The notes under the pieces are model-generated. The model was given only the letters and a program-made list of their open reading frames with translations. It made no database searches and had not been told where the DNA came from. Of a stretch of DNA of 64,000 nt, positions 3,188 through 14,067 are shown piece after piece (positions within the stretch are counted from its first letter, which is position 1; every line of letters starts with the position of its first letter). This stretch comes from Escherichia coli. Lineage in GTDB: Bacteria > Pseudomonadota > Gammaproteobacteria > Enterobacterales > Enterobacteriaceae. The DNA is taken from assembly GCF_024223415.1 (NCBI RefSeq), contig NZ_CP100500.1. The stretch is one strand, 5' to 3'. The translations under genes and the position numbers were made by a program.

Positions 3188-4006
3188 AAGGATAAATGGC
3201 GTTCTCTGTATTTATTCGCAATTATCTGTAGGACAAATATGGAGAGCTTGATGAGTCAGAGCTAAAACAGCAATTGATTAATAAACATGTTGATTTATTC
3301 AAGAAAATGGATGTATTTTAAATATTGATTCTTAATATAACCTAATCAATAGATTATCACGTGAGAGCTGCACATTATTGGAGGGGCAGGGGAAAACACC
3401 ATTTTGGGAACAATGCATCAGGTACTCTTACCACTGAAGCAAGATCATCCGGGCACCAGGTGGTGGTGCAGTGCTTTGGAAATGGTCCCCTCGGGGGAGT
3501 TGTCATTATTTTCTATGCTATTTGCTTATGATATTCATCAGGTGAATTTAATAAATTCCTAATTTGAAATATCCACTATTAAGCCAGTGTTTAACGACGT
3601 TAAGATGGCAATGTGCAGATCATGTTATCAGGGTGGGGCGGTAGCGTATATTCCTTATACAAATCATCATTCATTTCAATGATTGTTATTAAATTATTTA
3701 TTGTTGTGAATAAAAAGACATTATGAATATTGGTTTAACTTTGCATATCAGGTTTTTTATTACTCGCTGTAATGTACGAGCCTGTCGTGAATAACGTCCA
3801 GAACCCATCCGTTGCGTTTGTGATTATTTTGTTGACTAAACAGACGCCCGTTTCTCTGAAGTAAAATCCCAGACTAAATCATCACATAACCATGACATTT
3901 TCTGATATTCCCCGGTAACGCCAGTTGTCGACTCACTTATTTCATCCGCCCGACATGTTGTACATGCAATATGTGCGGATTATTATTCATTTTCACGGAG
4001 GTTGCT

Positions 4007-6115
4007 ATGTCAACCGGATTACGTTTCACGCTGGAAGTGGACGGCCTGCCACCGGACGCGTTTGCGGTGGTCTCCTTTCATCTGAACCAGTCACTCTCTT
4101 CACTTTTTTCCCTCGACCTTTCTCTGGTCAGTCAGCAGTTTCTTTCCCTTGAATTTGCGCAGGTGCTGGACAAAATGGCCTACCTGACGGTATGGCAGGG
4201 CGATGACGTACAGCGCCGGGTGAAAGGTGTGGTGACCTGGTTTGAACTGGGGGAGAACGACAAAAACCAGATGCTGTACAGCATGAAGGTGTGCCCGCCG
4301 CTGTGGCGCACAGGGCTGCGCCAGAACTTCCGTATCTTCCAGAATGAGGACATCGAAAGCATCCTCGCTACGATATTGCAGGAAAACGGGGTGACCGAGT
4401 GGAGTCCGCTGTTCAGCGAGCCGCATCCTTCCCGTGAGTTTTGTGTCCAGTACGGCGAAACCGATTACGATTTCCTGTGCCGGATGGCGGCGGAGGAAGG
4501 CATCTTCTTTTATGAGGAGCACGCGCAAAAAAGTACCGACCAAAGCCTGGTCCTGTGCGATACCGTGCGTTATCTGCCGGAGTCCTTTGAGATCCCCTGG
4601 AATCCGAACACCCGTACCGAGGTAAGCACCCTCTGCATCAGCCAGTTTCGCTACAGCGCACAAATCCGCCCTTCTTCCGTGGTGACCAAAGACTACACCT
4701 TTAAACGCCCCGGCTGGGCCGGACGTTTTGACCAGGAAGGCCAGCACCAGGATTACCAGCGCACACAGTATGAAGTGTATGACTATCCCGGACGTTTCAA
4801 GGGCGCCCACGGGCAGAACTTTGCCCGCTGGCAGATGGACGGCTGGCGAAACAACGCAGAAGTGGCGCGCGGAACAAGCCGTTCGCCGGAGATATGGCCG
4901 GGACGGCGAATTGTGCTGACGGGGCATCCGCAGGCGAACCTGAACCGGGAATGGCAGGTGGTGGCAAGTGAACTGCACGGTGAGCAGCCGCAGGCGGTGC
5001 CGGGACGCAGTGGTTCAGGTACCTCGCTGAATAACCACTTTGCGGTAATCCCGGCAGACCGGACATGGCGGCCACAGCCGTTGCTGAAACCGCTGGTGGA
5101 CGGCCCGCAGAGCGCCGTCGTGACGGGACCGGCAGGCGAGGAAATCTTCTGTGATGAACATGGCCGCGTGCGGGTGAAATTTAACTGGGACCGCTATAAC
5201 CCGTCAAACCAGGACAGTTCATGCTGGATCCGTGTGGCACAGGCGTGGGCAGGCACCGGATTCGGTAACCTTGCGATACCGCGCGTGGGTCAGGAGGTGA
5301 TTGTGGACTTCCTCAACGGCGATCCGGACCAGCCGATCATTATGGGGCGCACCTACCACCAGGAAAACCGCACACCCGGCAGCCTGCCGGGAACAAAGAC
5401 GCAGATGACCATTCGTTCGAAAACCTATAAGGGCAGCGGGTTTAATGAACTGAAGTTTGACGATGCGACAGGGAAAGAACAGGTCTACATCCACGCGCAG
5501 AAGAACATGAACACCGAGGTGCTGAATAACCGCACCACGGATGTGATAAACAACCATGCTGAGACCATTGGCAACAATCAGATGATTGCGGTTACCAACA
5601 ATCAGATACAGACGGTGGGCGTTAACCAGATAGAGACGGTGGGCAGTAACCAGATCATTAACGTGGGTTCTGTTCAGGTGGAAACGATTGGACTTGTTCG
5701 TGCGCTGACCGTGGGCGTGGCGTACCAGACGACGGTAGGTGGCATTATGAACACTTCGGTGGCTCTGATGCAGTCCTCGCAGATCGGTTTGCATAAATCT
5801 TTGAGGGTCGGGCTGGGTTATGACGTCAAAGTCGGAAATAACGTTACCTTCACCGTTGGTAAAACGAAAAAGGATGATACCGGGCAGACCGCGATTTACT
5901 CCGCCGGTGAGCATCTGGAGCTCTGCTGTGGTAAGGCAAAGCTGGTGCTGACAAAGGACGGTCAAATTTTTCTCAACGGCACAAAAATTCATTTGCAGGG
6001 TAAGGAGCAGGTTAATGGTGACTCACTGTTGATTAACTGGAACTGTGCAGCCTCGAAATCCCCACCGAAGACCCCTGATGAAAAGCAGGATACGCCGGAT
6101 ATGAGAGAGTACTGA
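4007..6115 (+). CDS. vgrG: Type VI secretion spike protein VgrG, 702 aa
   Basis: ORF 3971..6115; start set at ATG 4007 (MSTGLRFTLEVDGLPPDAF...) with GGAGG RBS at 3997-4001; gp27/gp5-like core, C-terminal beta-helix octapeptide repeats (NNQMIAVT/NNQIQTVG/VNQIETVG). Confidence 0.9.
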   Translation: MSTGLRFTLEVDGLPPDAFAVVSFHLNQSLSSLFSLDLSLVSQQFLSLEFAQVLDKMAYLTVWQGDDVQRRVKGVVTWFELGENDKNQMLYSMKVCPPLWRTGLRQNFRIFQNEDIESILATILQENGVTEWSPLFSEPHPSREFCVQYGETDYDFLCRMAAEEGIFFYEEHAQKSTDQSLVLCDTVRYLPESFEIPWNPNTRTEVSTLCISQFRYSAQIRPSSVVTKDYTFKRPGWAGRFDQEGQHQDYQRTQYEVYDYPGRFKGAHGQNFARWQMDGWRNNAEVARGTSRSPEIWPGRRIVLTGHPQANLNREWQVVASELHGEQPQAVPGRSGSGTSLNNHFAVIPADRTWRPQPLLKPLVDGPQSAVVTGPAGEEIFCDEHGRVRVKFNWDRYNPSNQDSSCWIRVAQAWAGTGFGNLAIPRVGQEVIVDFLNGDPDQPIIMGRTYHQENRTPGSLPGTKTQMTIRSKTYKGSGFNELKFDDATGKEQVYIHAQKNMNTEVLNNRTTDVINNHAETIGNNQMIAVTNNQIQTVGVNQIETVGSNQIINVGSVQVETIGLVRALTVGVAYQTTVGGIMNTSVALMQSSQIGLHKSLRVGLGYDVKVGNNVTFTVGKTKKDDTGQTAIYSAGEHLELCCGKAKLVLTKDGQIFLNGTKIHLQGKEQVNGDSLLINWNCAASKSPPKTPDEKQDTPDMREY

Positions 6116-6181: not shown

Positions 6182-9100
6182 ATGAGCGGAAAACCAGCGG
6201 CGCGTCAGGGAGATATGACTCAGTATGGCGGTCCCATTGTCCAGGGTTCGGCAGGTGTAAGAATTGGCGCGCCCACCGGCGTGGCGTGCTCGGTGTGTCC
6301 GGGCGGGATGACCTCGGGCAACCCGGTAAATCCGCTGCTGGGGGCGAAGGTGCTGCCCGGCGAGACGGACCTTGCGCTGCCCGGCCCGCTGCCGTTCATT
6401 CTCTCCCGCACCTACAGCAGCTACCGGACGAAGACGCCTGCGCCGGTGGGGATTTTTGGCCCCGGCTGGAAAGCGCCTTCTGATATCCGCTTACAGCTAC
6501 ATGATGACGGACTGATACTCAACGACAACGGCGGGCGGAGCATTCACTTTGAGCCGCTGCTGCCGGGGGAGGCGGTGTACAGCCGCAGCGAGTCAATGTG
6601 GCTGGTGCGCGGTGGTAAGGCAGCGCAGCCGGACGGCCACACGCTGGCGCGGCTGTGGGGGGCGCTGCCGCCGGATATCCGGTTAAGCCCGCATCTTTAC
6701 CTGGCGACCAACAGCGCACAGGGGCCGTGGTGGATACTGGGGTGGTCAGAGCGGGTGCCGGGTGCTGAGGACGTACTGCCAGCGCCGCTGCCGCCGTACC
6801 GGGTGCTTACCGGGCTGGCAGACCGTTTCGGGCGGACGCTGACGTACCGGCGTGAGGCCGCAGGCGACCTGGCCGGGGAAATCACCGGCGTGACGGACGG
6901 TGCCGGGCGTGAGTTCCGTCTGGTACTGACCACACAGGCACAGCGGGCGGAAGAGGCCCGCACCTCTTCGCTATCTTCTTCTGACAGTTCCCGCCCTCTC
7001 TCAGCCTCAGCGTTCCCCGACACACTGCCCGGTACCGAATACGGCCCCGACAGGGGTATCCGTCTTTCAGCGGTGTGGCTGATGCACGACCCGGCATACC
7101 CGGAGAATCTGCCCGGTGCGCCACTGGCGCGGTACACGTATACGGAAGCCGGTGAACTGCTGGCGGTATATGACCGCAGCAATACGCAGGTGCGCGCTTT
7201 CACGTATGACGCGCAGCACCCGGGCCGGATGGTGGCGCACCGTTACGCGGGAAGGCCGGAGATGCGCTACCGCTACGACGATACCGGGCGGGTGGTGGAG
7301 CAGCTGAACCCGGCAGGCCTGAGTTACCGCTACCAGTATGAGCAGGACCGCATCACCGTCACGGATAGCCTGAACCGGCGTGAGGTGCTGCATACAGAAG
7401 GCGGGGCCGGGCTGAAGCGGGTGGTGAAAAAAGAACTGGCGGACGGCAGCGTCACGCACAGCGGGTATGACGCGGCAGGAAGGCTCACGGCGCAGACGGA
7501 CGCGGCGGGACGGCGGACAGAGTACGGTCTGAATGTGGTGTCCGGCGATATCACGGACATCACCACACCGGACGGGCGGGAGACGAAATTTTACTATAAC
7601 GACGGGAACCAGCTGACGGCGGTGGTGTCCCCGGACGGGCTGGAGAGCCGCCGGGCATATGATGAACCGGGCAGGCTGGTATCGGAGACATCGCGCAGCG
7701 GGGAGACAGTACGCTACCGCTACGATGATGCGTACAGTGAGTTACCGGCGACGACAACAGATGCGACGGGCAGCACCCGGCAGATGACCTGGAGCCGCTA
7801 CGGTCAGTTGCTGGCGTTCACCGACTGCTCGGGCTACCAGACCCGCTATGAATACGACCGCTTCGGCCAGATGACGGCGGTCCACCGCGAGGAAGGCATC
7901 AGCCTTTACCGCCGCTATGACAACCGTGGCCGGTTAATCTCGGTGAAAGACGCACAGGGCCATGAAACGCGGTATGAGTACAACGCCGCAGGCGACCTGA
8001 CTGCCGTCATTACCCCGGACGGCAACCGGAGCGAGACACAGTACGATGCGTGGGGAAAGGCGGTCAGCACCACGCAGGGCGGGCTGACGCGCAGTATGGA
8101 GTACGATGCTGCCGGACGTGTCATCAGCCTGACCAACGAGAACGGCAGCCGGAGTGAGTTTACCTACGATGCGCTGGACCGCCTGGTACAGCAGGGCGGC
8201 TTTGACGGGCGGACGCAGCGTTACCGTTATGACCTGACCGGAAAACTCACGCAGAGTGAAGATGAGGGGCTTGTCATCCTCTGGTACTACGATGAATCGG
8301 ACCGTATCACTCACCGCACGGTGAACGGCGAACCGGCAGAGCAGTGGCAGTATGATGGCCACGGCTGGCTGAGAGAAATCAGCCACCTGAGCGAAGGCCA
8401 CCGTGTTGCCGTCCACTATGGCTATGACGATAAAGGCCGCCTGACCGGCGAACGCCAGACGGTGGAGAACCCGGAGACGGGGGAACTGCTGTGGCAGCAT
8501 GAGACGAAACACGCATACAACGAGCAGGGGCTGGCAAACCGCGTCACGCCGGACAGCCTGCCGCCGGTGGAGTGGCTGACGTATGGCAGCGGTTACCTGG
8601 CGGGAATGAAGCTGGGCGGGACGCCGCTGGTCGAGTATACGCGGGACAGGCTGCACCGGGAGACGGTGCGCAGCTTCGGCAATAATGCATATGAACTGAC
8701 CAGCACTTACACCCCCGCAGGCCAGTTACAGAGCCAGCACCTGAACAGCCTGGTGTATGACCGTGACTACGGGTGGAATGACAACGGCGACCTGGTGCGC
8801 ATCAGCGGTCCGCGACAGACGCGGGAATACGGCTACAGCGCCACGGGCAGGCTGGAGAGTGTGCGCACCCTCGCACCGGACCTGGACATCCGCATCCCGT
8901 ATGCCACGGACCCGGCGGGCAACCGGCTGCCGGACCCGGAGCTGCACCCGGACAGTACACTCACAGTGTGGCCGGATAACCGAATCACCGAAGACGCGCA
9001 CTACCTGTACCGTTACGATGAATACGGCAGGCTGACGGAGAAGACGGACCGCATCCCGACGGGTGTGATACGGACGGACGACGAGCGGACCCACCACTAC

Positions 9101-10387
9101 CACTACGACAGCCAGCACCGCCTGGTGTTCTACACGCGGATACAGCATGAGGAGCCACTGGTCGAGAGCCGCTACCTCTACGACCCGCTGGGACGGCGAA
9201 TGGCAAAACGGGTCTGGCGGCGGGAGCGTGACCTGACGGGGTGGATGTCGCTGTCGCGTAAACCGGAGGAGACATGGTACGGGTGGGACGGCGACAGGCT
9301 GACGACGGTGCAGACTGACACCACACGTATCCAGACGGTCTACCAGCCGGGGAGCTTCACGCCGCTCATCCGTATCGAGACAGAGAACGGCGAACGGGAG
9401 AAAATGCAGCGCCGCAGCCTGGCGGAGAAGCTGCAGCAGGAAGGAAGTGAGGACGGTCACGGTGTGGTGTTCCCGGCTGAGCTGGTGAGGATGCTGGACA
9501 GGCTGGAGGAAGAAATCCGGGCAAACTGCGTGAGCAGTGAAAGCCGCCAGTGGCTTGCGCAGTGCGGGCTGACGGTGGAGCGGCTGGCGGCACAGATAGA
9601 GCCGGTTTATTTGCCTGAGCGAAAAATACATCTTTATCACTGTGACCACCGGGGCCTGCCGCTGGCGCTTATCAGTGAAGACGGCAATACGGCGTGGCGC
9701 GGGGAGTATGATGAATGGGGCAACCAGCTTAATGAAGAGAACCCGTATTACCTGCACCAGCCATACCGTCTGCCGGGGCAGCAGCATGATGAGGAATCAG
9801 GGCTGTACTATAACCGGAACCGGTACTATGACCCGCTACAGGGGAGGTATATTACACAAGACCCCATTGGGCTGGAGGGGGGATGGAACCTGTACCAATA
9901 TCCGCTGAATCCAGTGCAACACGTTGATCCATTAGGGCTTAGTACTATGATAATAGGTAACGGCCCCGTTCCTGATAATCCTTTTGGGCATGCTGCGGCG
10001 GCAAATCGATATGGATTAATGAGTTCGGGAACTGGGGATGAGATGGGAGCCTCTGTCTCTGATTATTTTAAAAAGATGCAACCCCGCAGAGATACCTGGA
10101 TTTGGATAATAGATACAACAGATGAAGAAGAACAATGTATGATGAATAAGGCAATAGACCTTAATAAAAAACTAAAAACTATTAACCTCGGGCCTCTTCC
10201 TGTTTTAAATAATTGTTTTAGCCGAACGAACATGATTTTTGAGGCGTGCGGGTTTAACAACCCCTCTATGAATACAAATGCGCCTATAAGCCTACAAGTG
10301 CTCGGTGAGCTTTATGGATATCAAAGATATATTATGCCTAAAGGTCCTTTCACTGGATTCCCATTTGAATTTCAAGAGGTAAAGTAA
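6182..10387 (+). CDS. rhsE: Full-length Rhs polymorphic toxin, 1401 aa: PAAR-like N-terminus, YD-repeat shell, DPLGL boundary motif, variable C-terminal domain
   Basis: N-terminus [23 protein letters not shown]...; many YD repeats ([17 protein letters not shown], ...); conserved core end ...[26 protein letters not shown]...VDPLGL at 9923-9940; symbol assigned by locus position (between yncH and H-rpt/pptA). Confidence 0.9.
9941..10387 (+). other. Rhs C-terminal variable (toxin) domain, 148 aa, family not recognised
   Basis: Begins immediately after DPLGL; abrupt drop in GC content relative to the rhs core; contains His and Cys residues (GHAAA, EEQCMM, NNCFS, EACGF) but no motif I can assign. 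Confidence 0.6.
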
Positions 10388-10786
10388 ATGGAAATGCTTG
10401 GGAAGATATTAGTGATAATTATTTCCATGATAATTATATCTTGTGATTATTATAATGCTGGCATGGACTATCAAGATAATATAGCCCTCGAGCAAGTCGT
10501 AACATGGGATTCTGATAATATATTCACACCTAATATCTTTGAACATAATGGAAGATGTTTTATGAAGAAAAATGAAACATGGATGTTATTAAATGGAGAT
10601 GCAACACCAAACATTAGAACAATGAGCAATAAGAAAATAGAATGCCTGGAGAAGAGTGAAGTAGAATGGGCTAGTAGGGTTTGCGACAGTATCACAGACA
10701 AGGAAAGGGAAAATCTGAAGGCATTAATATGTAGCAAACCAGCTAAATCAGTTAATACAGGCAAAAGACCAGCGTTAGGATATTGA
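10388..10786 (+). CDS. Putative Rhs immunity protein, 132 aa, predicted inner-membrane lipoprotein
   Basis: ATG directly follows the rhs TAA stop (10385-10387); N-terminus MEMLGKILVIIISMIIIS-C19-D20 = signal peptide plus lipobox-like IISC with Asp at +2; AT-rich like the toxin tip. Confidence 0.6.
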   Translation: MEMLGKILVIIISMIIISCDYYNAGMDYQDNIALEQVVTWDSDNIFTPNIFEHNGRCFMKKNETWMLLNGDATPNIRTMSNKKIECLEKSEVEWASRVCDSITDKERENLKALICSKPAKSVNTGKRPALGY

Positions 10787-10937
10787 AACCGGCACTGCAC
10801 TCTATCACTATTACAATATTCTGAGTGACTAGAGCAACTGCTCCGCCATCCGGGCTAGCAGTATGACGACGAATCCGAACTGCACTACAACTGGCACCGG
10901 TACTACAATCCGGGACAGGGACCAGGGAAAGATCACG
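10787..10937 (+). pseudogene. Vestigial orphan rhs core 3' fragment with in-frame stops
   Basis: Translation ...LRHPG*QYDDESELHYNWHRYYNPGQG aligns with the core end ...[27 protein letters not shown] of the upstream rhs (similarity also visible at DNA level); TGA and TAG stops in frame; homology ends at the intron boundary. Confidence 0.5.
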
Positions 10938-11424
10938 GTGTGCCGTAGGCACAAAGATGCAAAACGGGACGTTTTGCATGTAATAAGCATAAGCTTGTGA
11001 AGAGATGGTGGCAGGCCCACCGGGATCTGCTGTCGGAAGTCGGTCCCAAACAACCCCGGCTGCTGTGGTAAAGAGCCAAGGTAGTGAGCGCAGGGGGAAC
11101 GATCAGACGAGATCTGATCCTGTGTGAGATACAGTGAGATGAGTAAACCCGAACCTGTGTTGAAACGTCGTTAGTCCTAAGTGACATCAAAACCGGAGGT
11201 TTCGTGATACCGCCTGGATTAATTTACGGGTGAATTCCGAATGCTGCGTAAATGGTGTCCGGCGTATAGCAGGCATGACGCTGTATCAGGCTCTTTGCAG
11301 GAACTACGGGAACCAGTCGTCGCAATGTCAAGAGAGAAATACAAATAACCGAAATTATGAGTATGAGAGTATCGATGTGCGAAACCGGGGCAGAGCTGTT
11401 CGTAGTAGTGAGGAAGCGTTTGTA

Positions 11425-12725
11425 ATGAATGTGGAGCGAAGGGGCAACGTCGGGCAGTCTGCATCACAGCCCAACTGTAAACAGGAGGAGGCTGCGGGTG
11501 AACAGACAAAACCGTTTCAGGTCAGTAAATTGCATGTGGTGGAAGCGTACCGTCGGGTAAAGGCGAATGCCGGAGCTGCCGGAGTGGATAACCAGACGCT
11601 GAAAGATTTTGAGCGGGATCTGAAAGGAAATCTGTACAAAATCTGGAACAGGTTATCGTCGGGAAGCTGGATGCCGCCGCCAGTGCGTGCGGTGGAAATT
11701 CCGAAGAAGGATGGCAGTAAAAGGCTTTTAGGAATACCGACAGTAAGCGATCGAATAGCGCAGATGACGGTGCTGGTAACGTTTGAACCATTAGTGGAGC
11801 GTTATTTCCTGAATGATTCATACGGATACCGGCATGGAAAATCAGCGCTGGATGCAATAGCAGTTACCAGAAAACGTTGCTGGCAATACGACTGGTGTCT
11901 TGAGTTTGATATTAAAGGGTTATTCGATAATATCCCCCACGATTTATTACTCAGGGCAGTGGATAAACATTGCGCGGATAAATGGGTAAGACTGTATATT
12001 CGCAGGTGGCTGACAGCGCCGGTGCAGATGCCGGATGGAACACTGAAGGAAAGAAATAAAGGTACGCCACAGGGTGGAGTCATCAGTCCGGTACTGGCGA
12101 ATTTATTTCTGCACTATGTGTTTGATAAATGGCTGTCGTTACATTATCCGGAAATTCCCTGGTGTCGTTATGCAGATGATGGATTAATTCATTGTGGCAG
12201 TAAACAACAGGCAGAGGAATTACTGAATAAACTGGCAAAACGTTTTCAGGAATGTGGACTGGAATTACATCCGGAGAAAACGAAAATAGTTTACTGCAAA
12301 GACAGCTAACGACAGGCGAACCACGAAACAGTGCAGTTTGATTTTCTGGGTTATACGTTCAGGGCGAGAAGAGCACGTAATCAGCGAAGTGGAAATCTCT
12401 TTACGAGTTTCAGTCCGGCGGTGAGTAACAGTGCGCAGAAAGGCATGATCGAAAAACTCAGGAAACTGCGGCTCAGACGCAGGGTGGAGATGAGTCTCGA
12501 AGATATTGCGAAAAGGCTGAATCCGATGATATCGGGGTGGCTGAATTATTACGCGAAATACCACAAAGATATATTAATCTGACGCTGATTGCGTGGGCGA
12601 GAAAGAAATATAAAACCCTGCGGTATAGAAAGACGAAGGCGTGTCAGCTAATGGAAAGGCTGTCAAAAGAGAAGCCGGAGTTGTTTGCCCACTGGAATGC
12701 AGGACCGGAAAGCGCGTTTGCCTGA
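11425..12725 (+). pseudogene. Group II intron reverse transcriptase/maturase (IEP), disrupted by an in-frame TAA and a frameshift
   Basis: RT motifs (AGAAGVDNQTL..., GTPQGGVISPVLANLFL, RYADDGLI = YADD box) and X/maturase motifs (FDFLGYTF, ISGWLNYY); TAA at 12307-12309 interrupts the frame; C-terminal segment (12537..12725) is in a different frame; start could alternatively be the upstream ATG at 11230. Confidence 0.75.
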
Positions 12726-12728
12726 CGG

Positions 12729-12762
12729 GAGCCGTATGAAGCGAGAGTTTCACGTACGGTTC
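12729..12762 (+). ncRNA. Group II intron domain V (catalytic hairpin)
   Basis: gagccgtatgaagcgagagtttcacgtacggttc: 10-bp lower stem with AGC triad at positions 2-4, 2-nt bulge on the 3' strand, 4-bp upper stem, GNRA (GAGA) tetraloop; 4 nt after the IEP stop. Confidence 0.7.
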
Positions 12763-12945
12763 TGCGAGAGGCTGTCGGGGAGGTTCCGGTGGCCTACTCA
12801 CTTAACGCTGCTTTTTTGTACTAAATAATTCGCATTTTATGTTTAAAAATTGAGATATTCCCCATTACCTAAAGCTGTTTTTTATTGCTTATACATGATC
12901 AAATACTCCTTACATAATTAAGGAGAACAAAATGGAATTAAAAAA

Positions 12946-14067
12946 TTGATGGAACATATTTCTGTTATCCCCGATTACAGACAAGCCTGGAAAGTGGAAC
13001 ATAAATTATCGGATATTCTACTGTTGACTATTTGTGCCGTTATTTCTGGTGCAGAAGGTTGGGAAGATATAGAGGATTTTGGGGAAACACATCTCGATTT
13101 TTTGAAGCAATATGGTGATTTTGAAAATGGTATTCCTGTTCACGATACCATTGCCAGAGTTGTATCCTGTATCAGTCCTGCAAAATTTCACGAGTGCTTT
13201 ATTAACTGGATGCGTGACTGCCATTCTTCAGATGATAAAGACGTCATTGCAATTGATGGAATAACGCTCCGGCACTCTTATGATAAGAGTCGTCGCAGGG
13301 GAGCGATTCATGTCATTAGTGCGTTCTCAACAATGCACAGTCTGGTCCTCGGACAGATCAGGACGGATGAGAAATCTAATGAGATTACAGCTATTCCTGA
13401 ACTTCTTAACATGATGGATATTAAAGGAAAAATCATCACAACTGATGCGATGGGTTGCCAGAAAGATATTGCAGAAAAGATACAAAAACAGGGAGGGGAT
13501 TATTTATTCGCTGTAAAGGGAAATCAGGGGCGACTAAATAAAGCCTTTGAGGAAAAATTCCCGCTGAAAGAATTAAATAATCCAGAGCATGACAGTTACG
13601 CAATCAGTGAAAAGAGTCACGGCAGAGAAGAAATCCGTCTTCATATTGTTTACGATGTCCCTGATGAACTTATTGATTTCACGTTTGAATGGAAAGGGCT
13701 GAAGAAATTATGCGTGGCAGTCTCCTTTCGGTCCATAATAGCAGAACAAAAGAAAGAGCCAAAAATGACGGTCAGATATTATATCAGTTCTGCTGATTTA
13801 ACCGCAGAGAAGTTCGCCACAGCAATCCGAAACCACTGGCACGTGGAGAATAAGCTGCACTGGCGTCTGGACGTGGTAATGAATGAAGACGACTGCAAAA
13901 TAAGAAGAGGAAATGCAGCAGAATTATTTTCAGGGATACGGCACATTGCTATTAATATTTTGACGAATGATAAGGTATTCAAGGCAGGGTTAAGACGTAA
14001 GATGCGAAAAGCAGCCATGGACAGAAACTATCTGGCGTCAGTCCTTGCGGGGAGCGGGCTTTCGTAA
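12946..14067 (+). CDS. ydcC: H-repeat-associated protein (ISAs1-family transposase), Rhs-linked
   Basis: ORF 12946..14067 (373 aa as called from a TTG; next codon is ATG) with DDE-type transposase sequence; an upstream ATG at 12932 with AGGAG RBS (12921-12925) is out of frame because of a 6-A run at 12940-12945. Confidence 0.85.

Follow-up and report, generated by a model that had tools for sequence, protein, structure and literature searches.

A predicted permuted NlpC/P60 toxin tip and its putative lipoprotein immunity partner in an Rhs locus of Escherichia coli

We analyzed a stretch of 64,000 nucleotides (nt) from Escherichia coli (contig NZ_CP100500.1 of assembly GCF_024223415.1), hereafter the window, and focused on the C-terminal tip of an Rhs protein of 1401 amino acids (aa) and on the open reading frame (ORF) that follows its gene. 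The tip comprises the 148 aa after the motif DPLGL, and the downstream ORF encodes 132 aa, with lipobox IISC, Cys19 and Asp20, as a preliminary description of this DNA had already read in the sequence. The tip is predicted to adopt a circularly permuted NlpC/P60 (papain-like) His-Cys enzyme fold, and its partner is predicted to be a lipoprotein retained in the inner membrane. We consider it reasonably probable that the two form a type VI secretion system (T6SS) effector-immunity pair, in which VgrG and a PAAR-Rhs protein would deliver the tip, cleavage after DPLGL would release it, Cys92 and His17 would attack the acyl linkages of inner-membrane phospholipids from the periplasm, and the lipoprotein would confer immunity.

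At the sequence level the tip has no match in Pfam (even at E ≤ 10), NCBIfam, PADLOC, PHROGs or PDB sequences, and the earlier remark that it belongs to no nameable toxin family holds at this level. Weak matches to NANM/YjhT, Zn_ribbon, a steroid dehydrogenase and PsaA were at chance level and were dropped. A word-indexed protein search with the tip retrieved enterobacterial homologs alone, at 54-98% identity. A profile built from seven homologs and searched against 1.84 billion cluster representatives retrieved 334 proteins at E ≤ 1e-3, 133 of them at E ≤ 1e-10; searched against PDB sequences, the family profile found no solved structure. In 133 of 152 retrieved relatives, at most 60 residues separate the domain from the C-terminus, and a DPxG motif occurs no more than 40 residues upstream of it in 109 of the 152. 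On the strength of this C-terminal placement and of the upstream DPxG, the tip is, as judged from its sequence relatives, a member of a widespread family of Rhs/YD toxin tips. The placement of the tip proposed below would extend a recently described toxin class, which has one measured example (Tox-Act1, described below) plus TseH, to a large family borne by Rhs/YD proteins that numbers 334 sequence clusters or more and is covered by no Pfam or NCBIfam model. A profile made from our alignment A4 would give a name to hundreds of Rhs tips now called 'hypothetical'.

Among 145 aligned members of the family, N13, P14, G16, H17, G25, S28, G30, G36, R50 and C92 (tip numbering) are kept at 93-99%. The near-invariant motifs of the family are NPxGH and (D/N)-N-C, which hold the predicted catalytic residues listed in Table 1. 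Cys66 and Cys103 are both present in 10 of the 145 sequences and both absent from 135, while neither occurs alone; five of the ten sequences that carry the pair fall outside the tip's own subfamily. Because the two cysteines co-occur without exception, they probably form a structural disulfide.

An AlphaFold2 model of the tip, computed from a seven-sequence alignment, has a predicted local distance difference test score (pLDDT) of 79 and a predicted template modeling score (pTM) of 0.80. In this model H17 opens a strand (residues 17-22) and C92 opens a helix (residues 92-102), the helix N-terminus being the hallmark position of the papain-fold nucleophile. A His in a strand followed by a Cys at a helix N-terminus is the arrangement of circularly permuted NlpC/P60 domains (PMC12994826; also textbook). 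When the model was compared with solved structures (one figure per entry, given without a unit), the matches were E. coli YiiX (PDB 2if6, 10.0), the Vibrio cholerae T6SS effector TseH (6v98, 9.5), a B. cereus cysteine peptidase (3kw0, 8.5), the Rho-inactivation domain (RID) of MARTX (5xn7, 7.6), a PPPDE deSUMOylase (2wp7, 4.5), NlpC/P60 chains (2evr, 8er5 and 8ev5, 3.3-4.0) and PLAAT4 (7zot, 3.4).

A Foldseek search of AFDB50 returned E. coli and Hafnia orthologs first. Ranks 8-50 were mostly proteins named 'DUF4105 domain-containing' or 'Lnb N-terminal periplasmic domain' and other Rhs/YD tips; the better matches in these ranks had a probability of 1.00 and template modeling (TM) scores of 0.6-0.8, and annotated neighbors had E-values from 3e-9 to 1e-3. 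In a Pfam scan of 32 relatives, Lnb_N was matched by three at E ≤ 0.1 (one of these at E ≤ 1e-3) and was the only NlpC/P60-type family touched, with no match to Peptidase_C92, C97, LRAT, DUF6695 or NLPC_P60. Since the AFDB neighbors beyond the close orthologs are DUF4105/Lnb-like proteins, the tip is predicted to have the permuted NlpC/P60 fold. Structure prediction and Foldseek, which the preliminary description had proposed as a check on both proteins, thus led to the permuted NlpC/P60 neighborhood (DUF4105/Lnb) in the case of the tip.

The closest characterized case is Tox-Act1/Imm-Act1 (Salmonella STox_15; Nicastro et al., PLoS Biol 2026). Tox-Act1, a T6SS effector, has a permuted NlpC/P60 core, exerts toxicity only in the periplasm and is inactivated by H43A and C151A; it cleaves phosphatidylglycerol (PG) and phosphatidylethanolamine (PE) in vitro, and in cells it raises lysophospholipids and free fatty acids and causes lysis with the rod shape kept (PMC12994826). 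It was placed as a sister to DUF4105 and linked by its authors to both DUF4105 and TseH, and its immunity protein, Imm-Act1, contains two transmembrane helices (PMC12994826). The tip, as a predicted antibacterial T6SS effector, resembles Tox-Act1 in its permuted NlpC/P60 core, in the order of His before Cys, in the N-N-C motif and in its DUF4105/TseH neighborhood. Further parallels are the periplasmic action of Tox-Act1, the association of its immunity protein with the membrane and the fact that no Pfam model covers it (Tox-Act1 itself has no Pfam match). The two differ in that Tox-Act1 is a stand-alone protein of 279 aa with H43 and C151 108 residues apart, whereas the tip, of 148 aa, is fused to an Rhs core and its H17 and C92 lie 75 residues apart, and in that the activity of Tox-Act1 has been measured and that of the tip is predicted. 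The immunity proteins also differ: in place of the two transmembrane helices of Imm-Act1, the partner of the tip has a single lipobox signal peptide, and it does not match the Imm-Act1 type.

The other relatives are more remote. The toxicity of TseH/TsiH from V. cholerae is confined to the periplasm (PMC4453574), and TseH has phospholipase activity at pH 8.9 (PMC12994826); however, TseH (PDB 6V98; Pfam DUF6695) shares 6% identity with the tip and is a separate 223-aa protein encoded beside a PAAR gene, not an Rhs tip, and DUF6695 is matched neither by the tip nor by the 32 relatives. DUF4105 corresponds to Lnb, a lipoprotein N-acyltransferase of Bacteroides with the triad Asn66-His49-Cys148 (PMC11160734). 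Lnb proteins are the nearest annotated AFDB50 neighbors of the tip, also have His before Cys and work on acyl chains at the periplasmic face of the inner membrane, as the tip may do; yet Lnb has five transmembrane helices and a housekeeping context, whereas the tip lacks these helices and is found in the setting of a toxin, beside an immunity gene. The YiiX/YaeF family (Peptidase_C92; PDB 2IF6 and 3KW0) shares 9-13% identity with the tip, which has no Pfam C92 match, and YiiX proteins are neither toxins nor accompanied by an immunity partner. Members of the permuted NlpC/P60 group, including the YiiX-like proteins of B. cereus, have been described as lipid-directed (PMC12994826). Finally, the LRAT/PLAAT (H-RAS-like suppressor) phospholipase-acyltransferases are structurally very distant from the tip and are eukaryotic or viral housekeeping enzymes, and the tip has no match to the LRAT Pfam family.

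Because no sequence-level link to Tox-Act1 was found, we assign the tip to the permuted NlpC/P60 superfamily, nearest to the DUF4105/Tox-Act1 neighborhood, and leave it outside Tox-Act1, DUF4105 and TseH as these are now defined. The border between Tox-Act1 and DUF4105 is itself not sharp in the source, since the E. coli Rhs protein QMP79959.1 (RHS+DUF4105; CP057959) is treated as a Tox-Act1 homolog in the main text and stands on the supplement sheet 'DUF4105b (Firmicutes)' (supplementary tables S3A versus S3D; PMC12994826). Among the Tox-Act1 entries in blocks 1-87 of S3A, and in a term search of all sheets, there is no entry matching the tip (PMC12994826), and none of the organisms of the 19 distant relatives described below is present in the tables of that study. 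The pair had been called uncharacterized, and both of its genes are indeed unannotated as to function; the toxin family is, however, recognizable by structure, and toxins of this kind have already been described (TseH, Tox-Act1).

The genes next to distant relatives of the tip point to the compartment in which it would act. A scan of one genome per species with alignment A5, which is narrower than A4, revealed 19 loci with distant relatives of the tip at 34-54% identity to the query; their hosts include Stenotrophomonas, Variovorax, Xylophilus, Burkholderia and Acinetobacter. The downstream ORF was readable in 17 of these loci, the other two being a contig that ends early and a frameshifted toxin. 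All 17 downstream ORFs open with a hydrophobic export signal: the lipobox pattern is matched by eight, a lipobox-like FGC is present in one more, and the remaining eight each carry one N-terminal membrane anchor. By inspection, they represent at least five seemingly unrelated families, among them ankyrin-repeat lipoproteins, 'NKxEYSxLQ' lipoproteins (several with Asp at +2) and anchored proteins with 'GSTYDEL...YHWxSW'. Since these differing immunity proteins are all exported and membrane-tethered, their sequences provide strong indirect evidence that the toxin family works in the periplasm, at the membrane. The tethered partners found across the family thus point to the toxin's site of action, and Rhs shells, which are usually linked to cytoplasmic toxins, are predicted to carry a periplasm-acting enzyme commonly.

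Two observations concern individual loci of this set. The ankyrin-repeat partners with lipoprotein signal peptides (L002, 2968-3441; L011, 2993-3439; L012, 547-1005; L016, 2990-3415) represent an unusual use of ankyrin repeats, namely in periplasmic, membrane-tethered immunity. The frameshifted toxin homolog is from Xylophilus sp. Leaf220 (L020, 2501-2955), where the second half, with the catalytic Cys motif, forms a separate 73-aa ORF in another frame; it is probably a decaying copy.

The 132-aa partner has features of an exported lipoprotein. Its N-terminus, MEMLGKILVIIISMIIIS-C19-D20, opens with a short charged n-region, which is followed by a hydrophobic core of 11 residues and the lipobox I-I-S-C (segments as read: MEMLGK / ILVIIISMII / I-I-S-C19), and it agrees with the lipobox pattern [LVI][ASTVI][GAS]C. 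Among the homologs (57-90% identity), the part of the signal peptide ahead of the lipobox varies in sequence, but the stretch I[ITV]SC-DYYNA is kept in all of them, with C19-D20 invariant. Asp at +2 is the inner-membrane retention signal of E. coli lipoproteins; by this and by the lipobox rule, the protein is predicted to be a lipoprotein retained in the inner membrane. No second hydrophobic segment follows the N-terminal signal peptide. Cys57, Cys86, Cys99 and Cys115 of the mature part are kept in every intact homolog, and this conservation of four cysteines fits an exported protein with two disulfides. The Hafnia homolog and one other carry the name 'Lipoprotein' in UniProt. The earlier proposal of an exported lipoprotein immunity protein is therefore well supported by the invariant S-C-D-Y-Y-N-A, the variable signal residues before it, the four mature cysteines and the two UniProt names. 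The protein has no relative in Pfam, NCBIfam or PDB sequences, and a literature search by its accession gave no match; by sequence it is an orphan family.

The tip and its partner stay linked as both diverge. In Salmonella enterica (GCA_007019185.2), a tip with 84% identity is directly followed by a partner with ~77-81% identity, and on a metagenome contig (L023) a tip of the 72% class overlaps its partner (57% identical) by 4 nt. The Salmonella locus (L021; contig AAGWGY020000001.1, 1035-3628) continues beyond the pair with a 714-aa orphan Rhs fragment and a 150-aa ORF, which are a second silent toxin/immunity module.

These data can be combined into the following model. The Rhs protein, with PAAR as a label for its N-terminal region that is taken over from the preliminary description only, would be carried on the VgrG spike, whose gene lies immediately upstream. 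The Rhs shell would enclose the 148-aa tip, and a cut after DPLGL would free it. In the periplasm of the target cell, where the Cys66-Cys103 disulfide would probably stabilize it, the tip would use Cys92 most likely to attack the fatty-acyl linkages of membrane lipids. This lipid chemistry is suggested by analogy, because the best-matching folds are those of characterized acyl-chain enzymes. The most probable substrates would be phospholipids of the outer leaflet of the inner membrane, with lysophospholipids and free fatty acids as presumed products and destruction of the membrane as the expected outcome; acyl transfer in place of hydrolysis is conceivable. The co-transcribed lipoprotein would undergo export and lipidation at Cys19, and Asp at +2 would keep it in the inner membrane, where it may bind and block the toxin at its site of action and so protect the producer. 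A permuted NlpC/P60, lipid-directed placement gives the tip a testable function.

Several points weigh against this model. The tip does not match Pfam Lnb_N/DUF4105 (PF13387) even at E ≤ 10. Comparison with Tox-Act1, whose sequence (P0187) was rebuilt from published primers with a masked query, gave no detectable link: hhalign of A4 against P0187 reached a probability of 1.5% and aligned only 20 columns around NNC, at a sensitivity limited by a prototype side of three near-identical sequences, and with HMMER the tip family reached 3-4 bits by hmmsearch, while phmmer gave no relative above 7 bits. Ser28, the most highly conserved of the candidates, is only a tentative third catalytic residue. 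The model of the immunity protein is weak (pLDDT 61), and its fold search in AFDB found its own homologs alone at E < 0.01, the rest being noise; for the partner, therefore, the check proposed in the preliminary description assigned no fold. Finally, the original account of TseH presented it as a probable hydrolase of the cell wall that makes cells round up (PMC4453574), and Rhs tips and Rhs-PAAR effectors usually act in the cytoplasm (PMC12994826); each of these last two points leads to a different view of the target.

Because TseH was first seen as a cell-wall hydrolase, the fold alone leaves a peptidoglycan target possible. The tip would then be an amidase or endopeptidase, the classical NlpC/P60 activity also known from Tae effectors, and target cells would lyse because their cell-wall peptides are cut in the periplasm. 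We regard this as unlikely and a lipid target as more likely than the cell wall; the earlier alternative of a periplasmic toxin acting on the membrane or the cell wall is retained as to periplasm and membrane, on account of the predicted fold and the 17 tethered partners, and narrowed as to target. Another view keeps the lipid substrate and changes the outcome: mainly an acyltransferase, the tip would take a phospholipid acyl chain onto Cys92 and pass it to an envelope target (a lipoprotein N-terminus or a protein lysine), as do Lnb and the MARTX RID, and so poison lipoprotein sorting or an essential envelope protein. Against it stand the fact that the sole measured activities of the toxin's relatives are phospholipase activities, the minimal size of the 148-aa tip, which lacks the transmembrane part of Lnb, and a sequence that suggests no acceptor, and we hold it to be improbable. 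A bolder version, to which we give a distinctly low probability, is that the tip, instead of a bulk phospholipase, is a weaponized Lnb-like enzyme that strips or misplaces acyl chains on target lipoprotein anchors at the periplasmic face of the inner membrane, causing lipoprotein sorting and the outer membrane to collapse, with the Asp+2 immunity protein as a substrate mimic or decoy; if true, the tip would be the first interbacterial toxin to target lipoprotein maturation.

The usual association of Rhs-PAAR effectors with cytoplasm-acting toxins, together with the cytoplasmic proteases and deamidases among papain-fold enzymes (textbook), would favor a cytoplasmic role of the tip, as is the case for the majority of Rhs tips; it might then be a thiol protease or deamidase, for instance, and the downstream ORF would not be its exported immunity protein. 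We consider this very improbable, given that the linkage of ORF and tip persists at 72% identity of the tip and 57% of the partner, that the lipobox and four cysteines of the partner are conserved, that all 17 readable partners of distant relatives are exported or membrane-anchored, and that the covarying Cys pair of the toxin fits an oxidizing compartment. Periplasmic attack on phospholipids stays our preferred reading.

The tip and the immunity gene show the pattern of an exchangeable module. The GC content is 63.1% in the Rhs core, 39.6% in the tip, 34.3% in the immunity ORF and 51.5% in the downstream spacer, and the GC content at third codon positions (GC3) is 0.757, 0.338 and 0.318 in the core, tip and immunity ORF, respectively. 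The drop had been placed exactly at the DPLGL boundary; it is real and large, but it sets in ~300 nt before DPLGL, the final 200 nt of the core having 54.0% GC. The 846-bp cassette occurs in 543 of 5426 complete E. coli genomes (≥95% identity, ≥80% coverage), always as a unit, while the adjacent Rhs core sequence was found in more than 2100 E. coli genomes. From this difference in distribution we deduce an exchangeable tip-plus-immunity module, in agreement with the horizontally exchanged cassette proposed before from composition. About one tenth (~10%) of complete E. coli genomes carry this pair, for which the RefSeq annotation goes no further than 'RHS element core protein' for one gene and 'hypothetical protein' for the other.

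Two other E. coli Rhs genes match the tip only in part: one (H50, strain ETEC4071) is 98.8% identical over the first 86 nt of the tip (9941-10026) and then diverges, and another (H49) matches solely from nt 224 of the tip on. These partial matches suggest recombination breakpoints within the tip sequence, besides the one at DPLGL.

The features of the locus are summarized in Table 1.

Table 1. Coordinates of the Rhs toxin-immunity locus in the window
Feature	Coordinates	Strand	Evidence
vgrG, T6SS spike gene	4007..6115	+	NCBIfam TIGR03361 VI_Rhs_Vgr, 629 bits, E 4.7e-189; RefSeq 'type VI secretion system tip protein VgrG' in identical locus
Rhs gene, 1401 aa, ending ...FEFQEVK	6182..10387	+	ORF list
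Rhs core, residues 1-1253, N-terminal region and YD-repeat shell	6182..9940	+	NCBIfam NF041261 RHS_core equivalog, 2744 bits (cut-off 2000)
DPLGL codons GAT CCA TTA GGG CTT, predicted autoproteolysis/tip-release site	9926..9940	+	Read in sequence, core ends ...HVDPLGL
Toxin tip, 148 aa, predicted permuted NlpC/P60 His-Cys domain	9941..10387 (codons 9941-10384 + stop)	+	
His17 codon CAT, predicted catalytic histidine	9989..9991	+	H in 143/145 members, within NPxGH; sole His of tip
Cys66 codon, predicted disulfide partner of Cys103	10136..10138	+	Co-occurrence with Cys103
Cys92 codon TGT, predicted catalytic nucleophile	10214..10216	+	C in 142/145 members, within (D/N)-N-C
Cys103 codon, predicted disulfide partner of Cys66	10247..10249	+	Co-occurrence with Cys66
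Immunity gene, 132 aa, predicted inner-membrane-retained lipoprotein	10388..10786	+	Abuts Rhs stop codon
Signal peptide residues 1-18, lipobox I-I-S-C, Cys19 TGT 10442-10444, Asp20 (+2) GAT 10445-10447	10388..10447	+	Read in sequence

The gene order is vgrG, the 1401-aa Rhs gene, the 132-aa ORF, a decayed group II intron and an ISAs1/H-repeat transposase, and the yncH-to-pptA region of E. coli Combat11I9 is identical to this segment of the window. TIGR03696 (Rhs_assc_core) is matched at Rhs residues 1176-1253, and the PxxxxDPxGL boundary of Rhs proteins is a site of C-terminal autoproteolysis. The TAA stop of the Rhs gene is followed without a gap by the ATG of the 132-aa ORF, which begins MEMLGKILVIIISMIIISCDYYN; AAGAGG, 10 nt upstream of this ORF, is a plausible ribosome-binding site. 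Both ORFs are real genes and not chance ORFs, since the cassette recurs in genomes, RefSeq annotates both and diverged homologs keep the motifs.

Further upstream, vgrG and the Rhs gene are separated by 66 nt. The longest ORF for vgrG starts at 3971 (714 aa), 36 nt before the RefSeq start at 4007 (702 aa).

Just 3' of the immunity gene lies the group II intron (10830-12810), which is matched by Rfam RF01999 (93.9 bits) and RF00029 (62.8 bits), the match spans given for the two families together being 11007-11122 and 12727-12802. Its reverse transcriptase/maturase is broken into three ORFs (11230-12309, 12331-12582 and 12537-12725), and RefSeq describes the intron ltrA as 'frameshifted; internal stop'. 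The intron occupies the position where Rhs loci often hold orphan tip/immunity modules. It is followed by the transposase of the ISAs1 family (H-repeat), annotated ydcC, at 12946-14067; H-repeat transposases are classic companions of Rhs elements, and with this one the rhsE-type locus ends, ahead of pptA.

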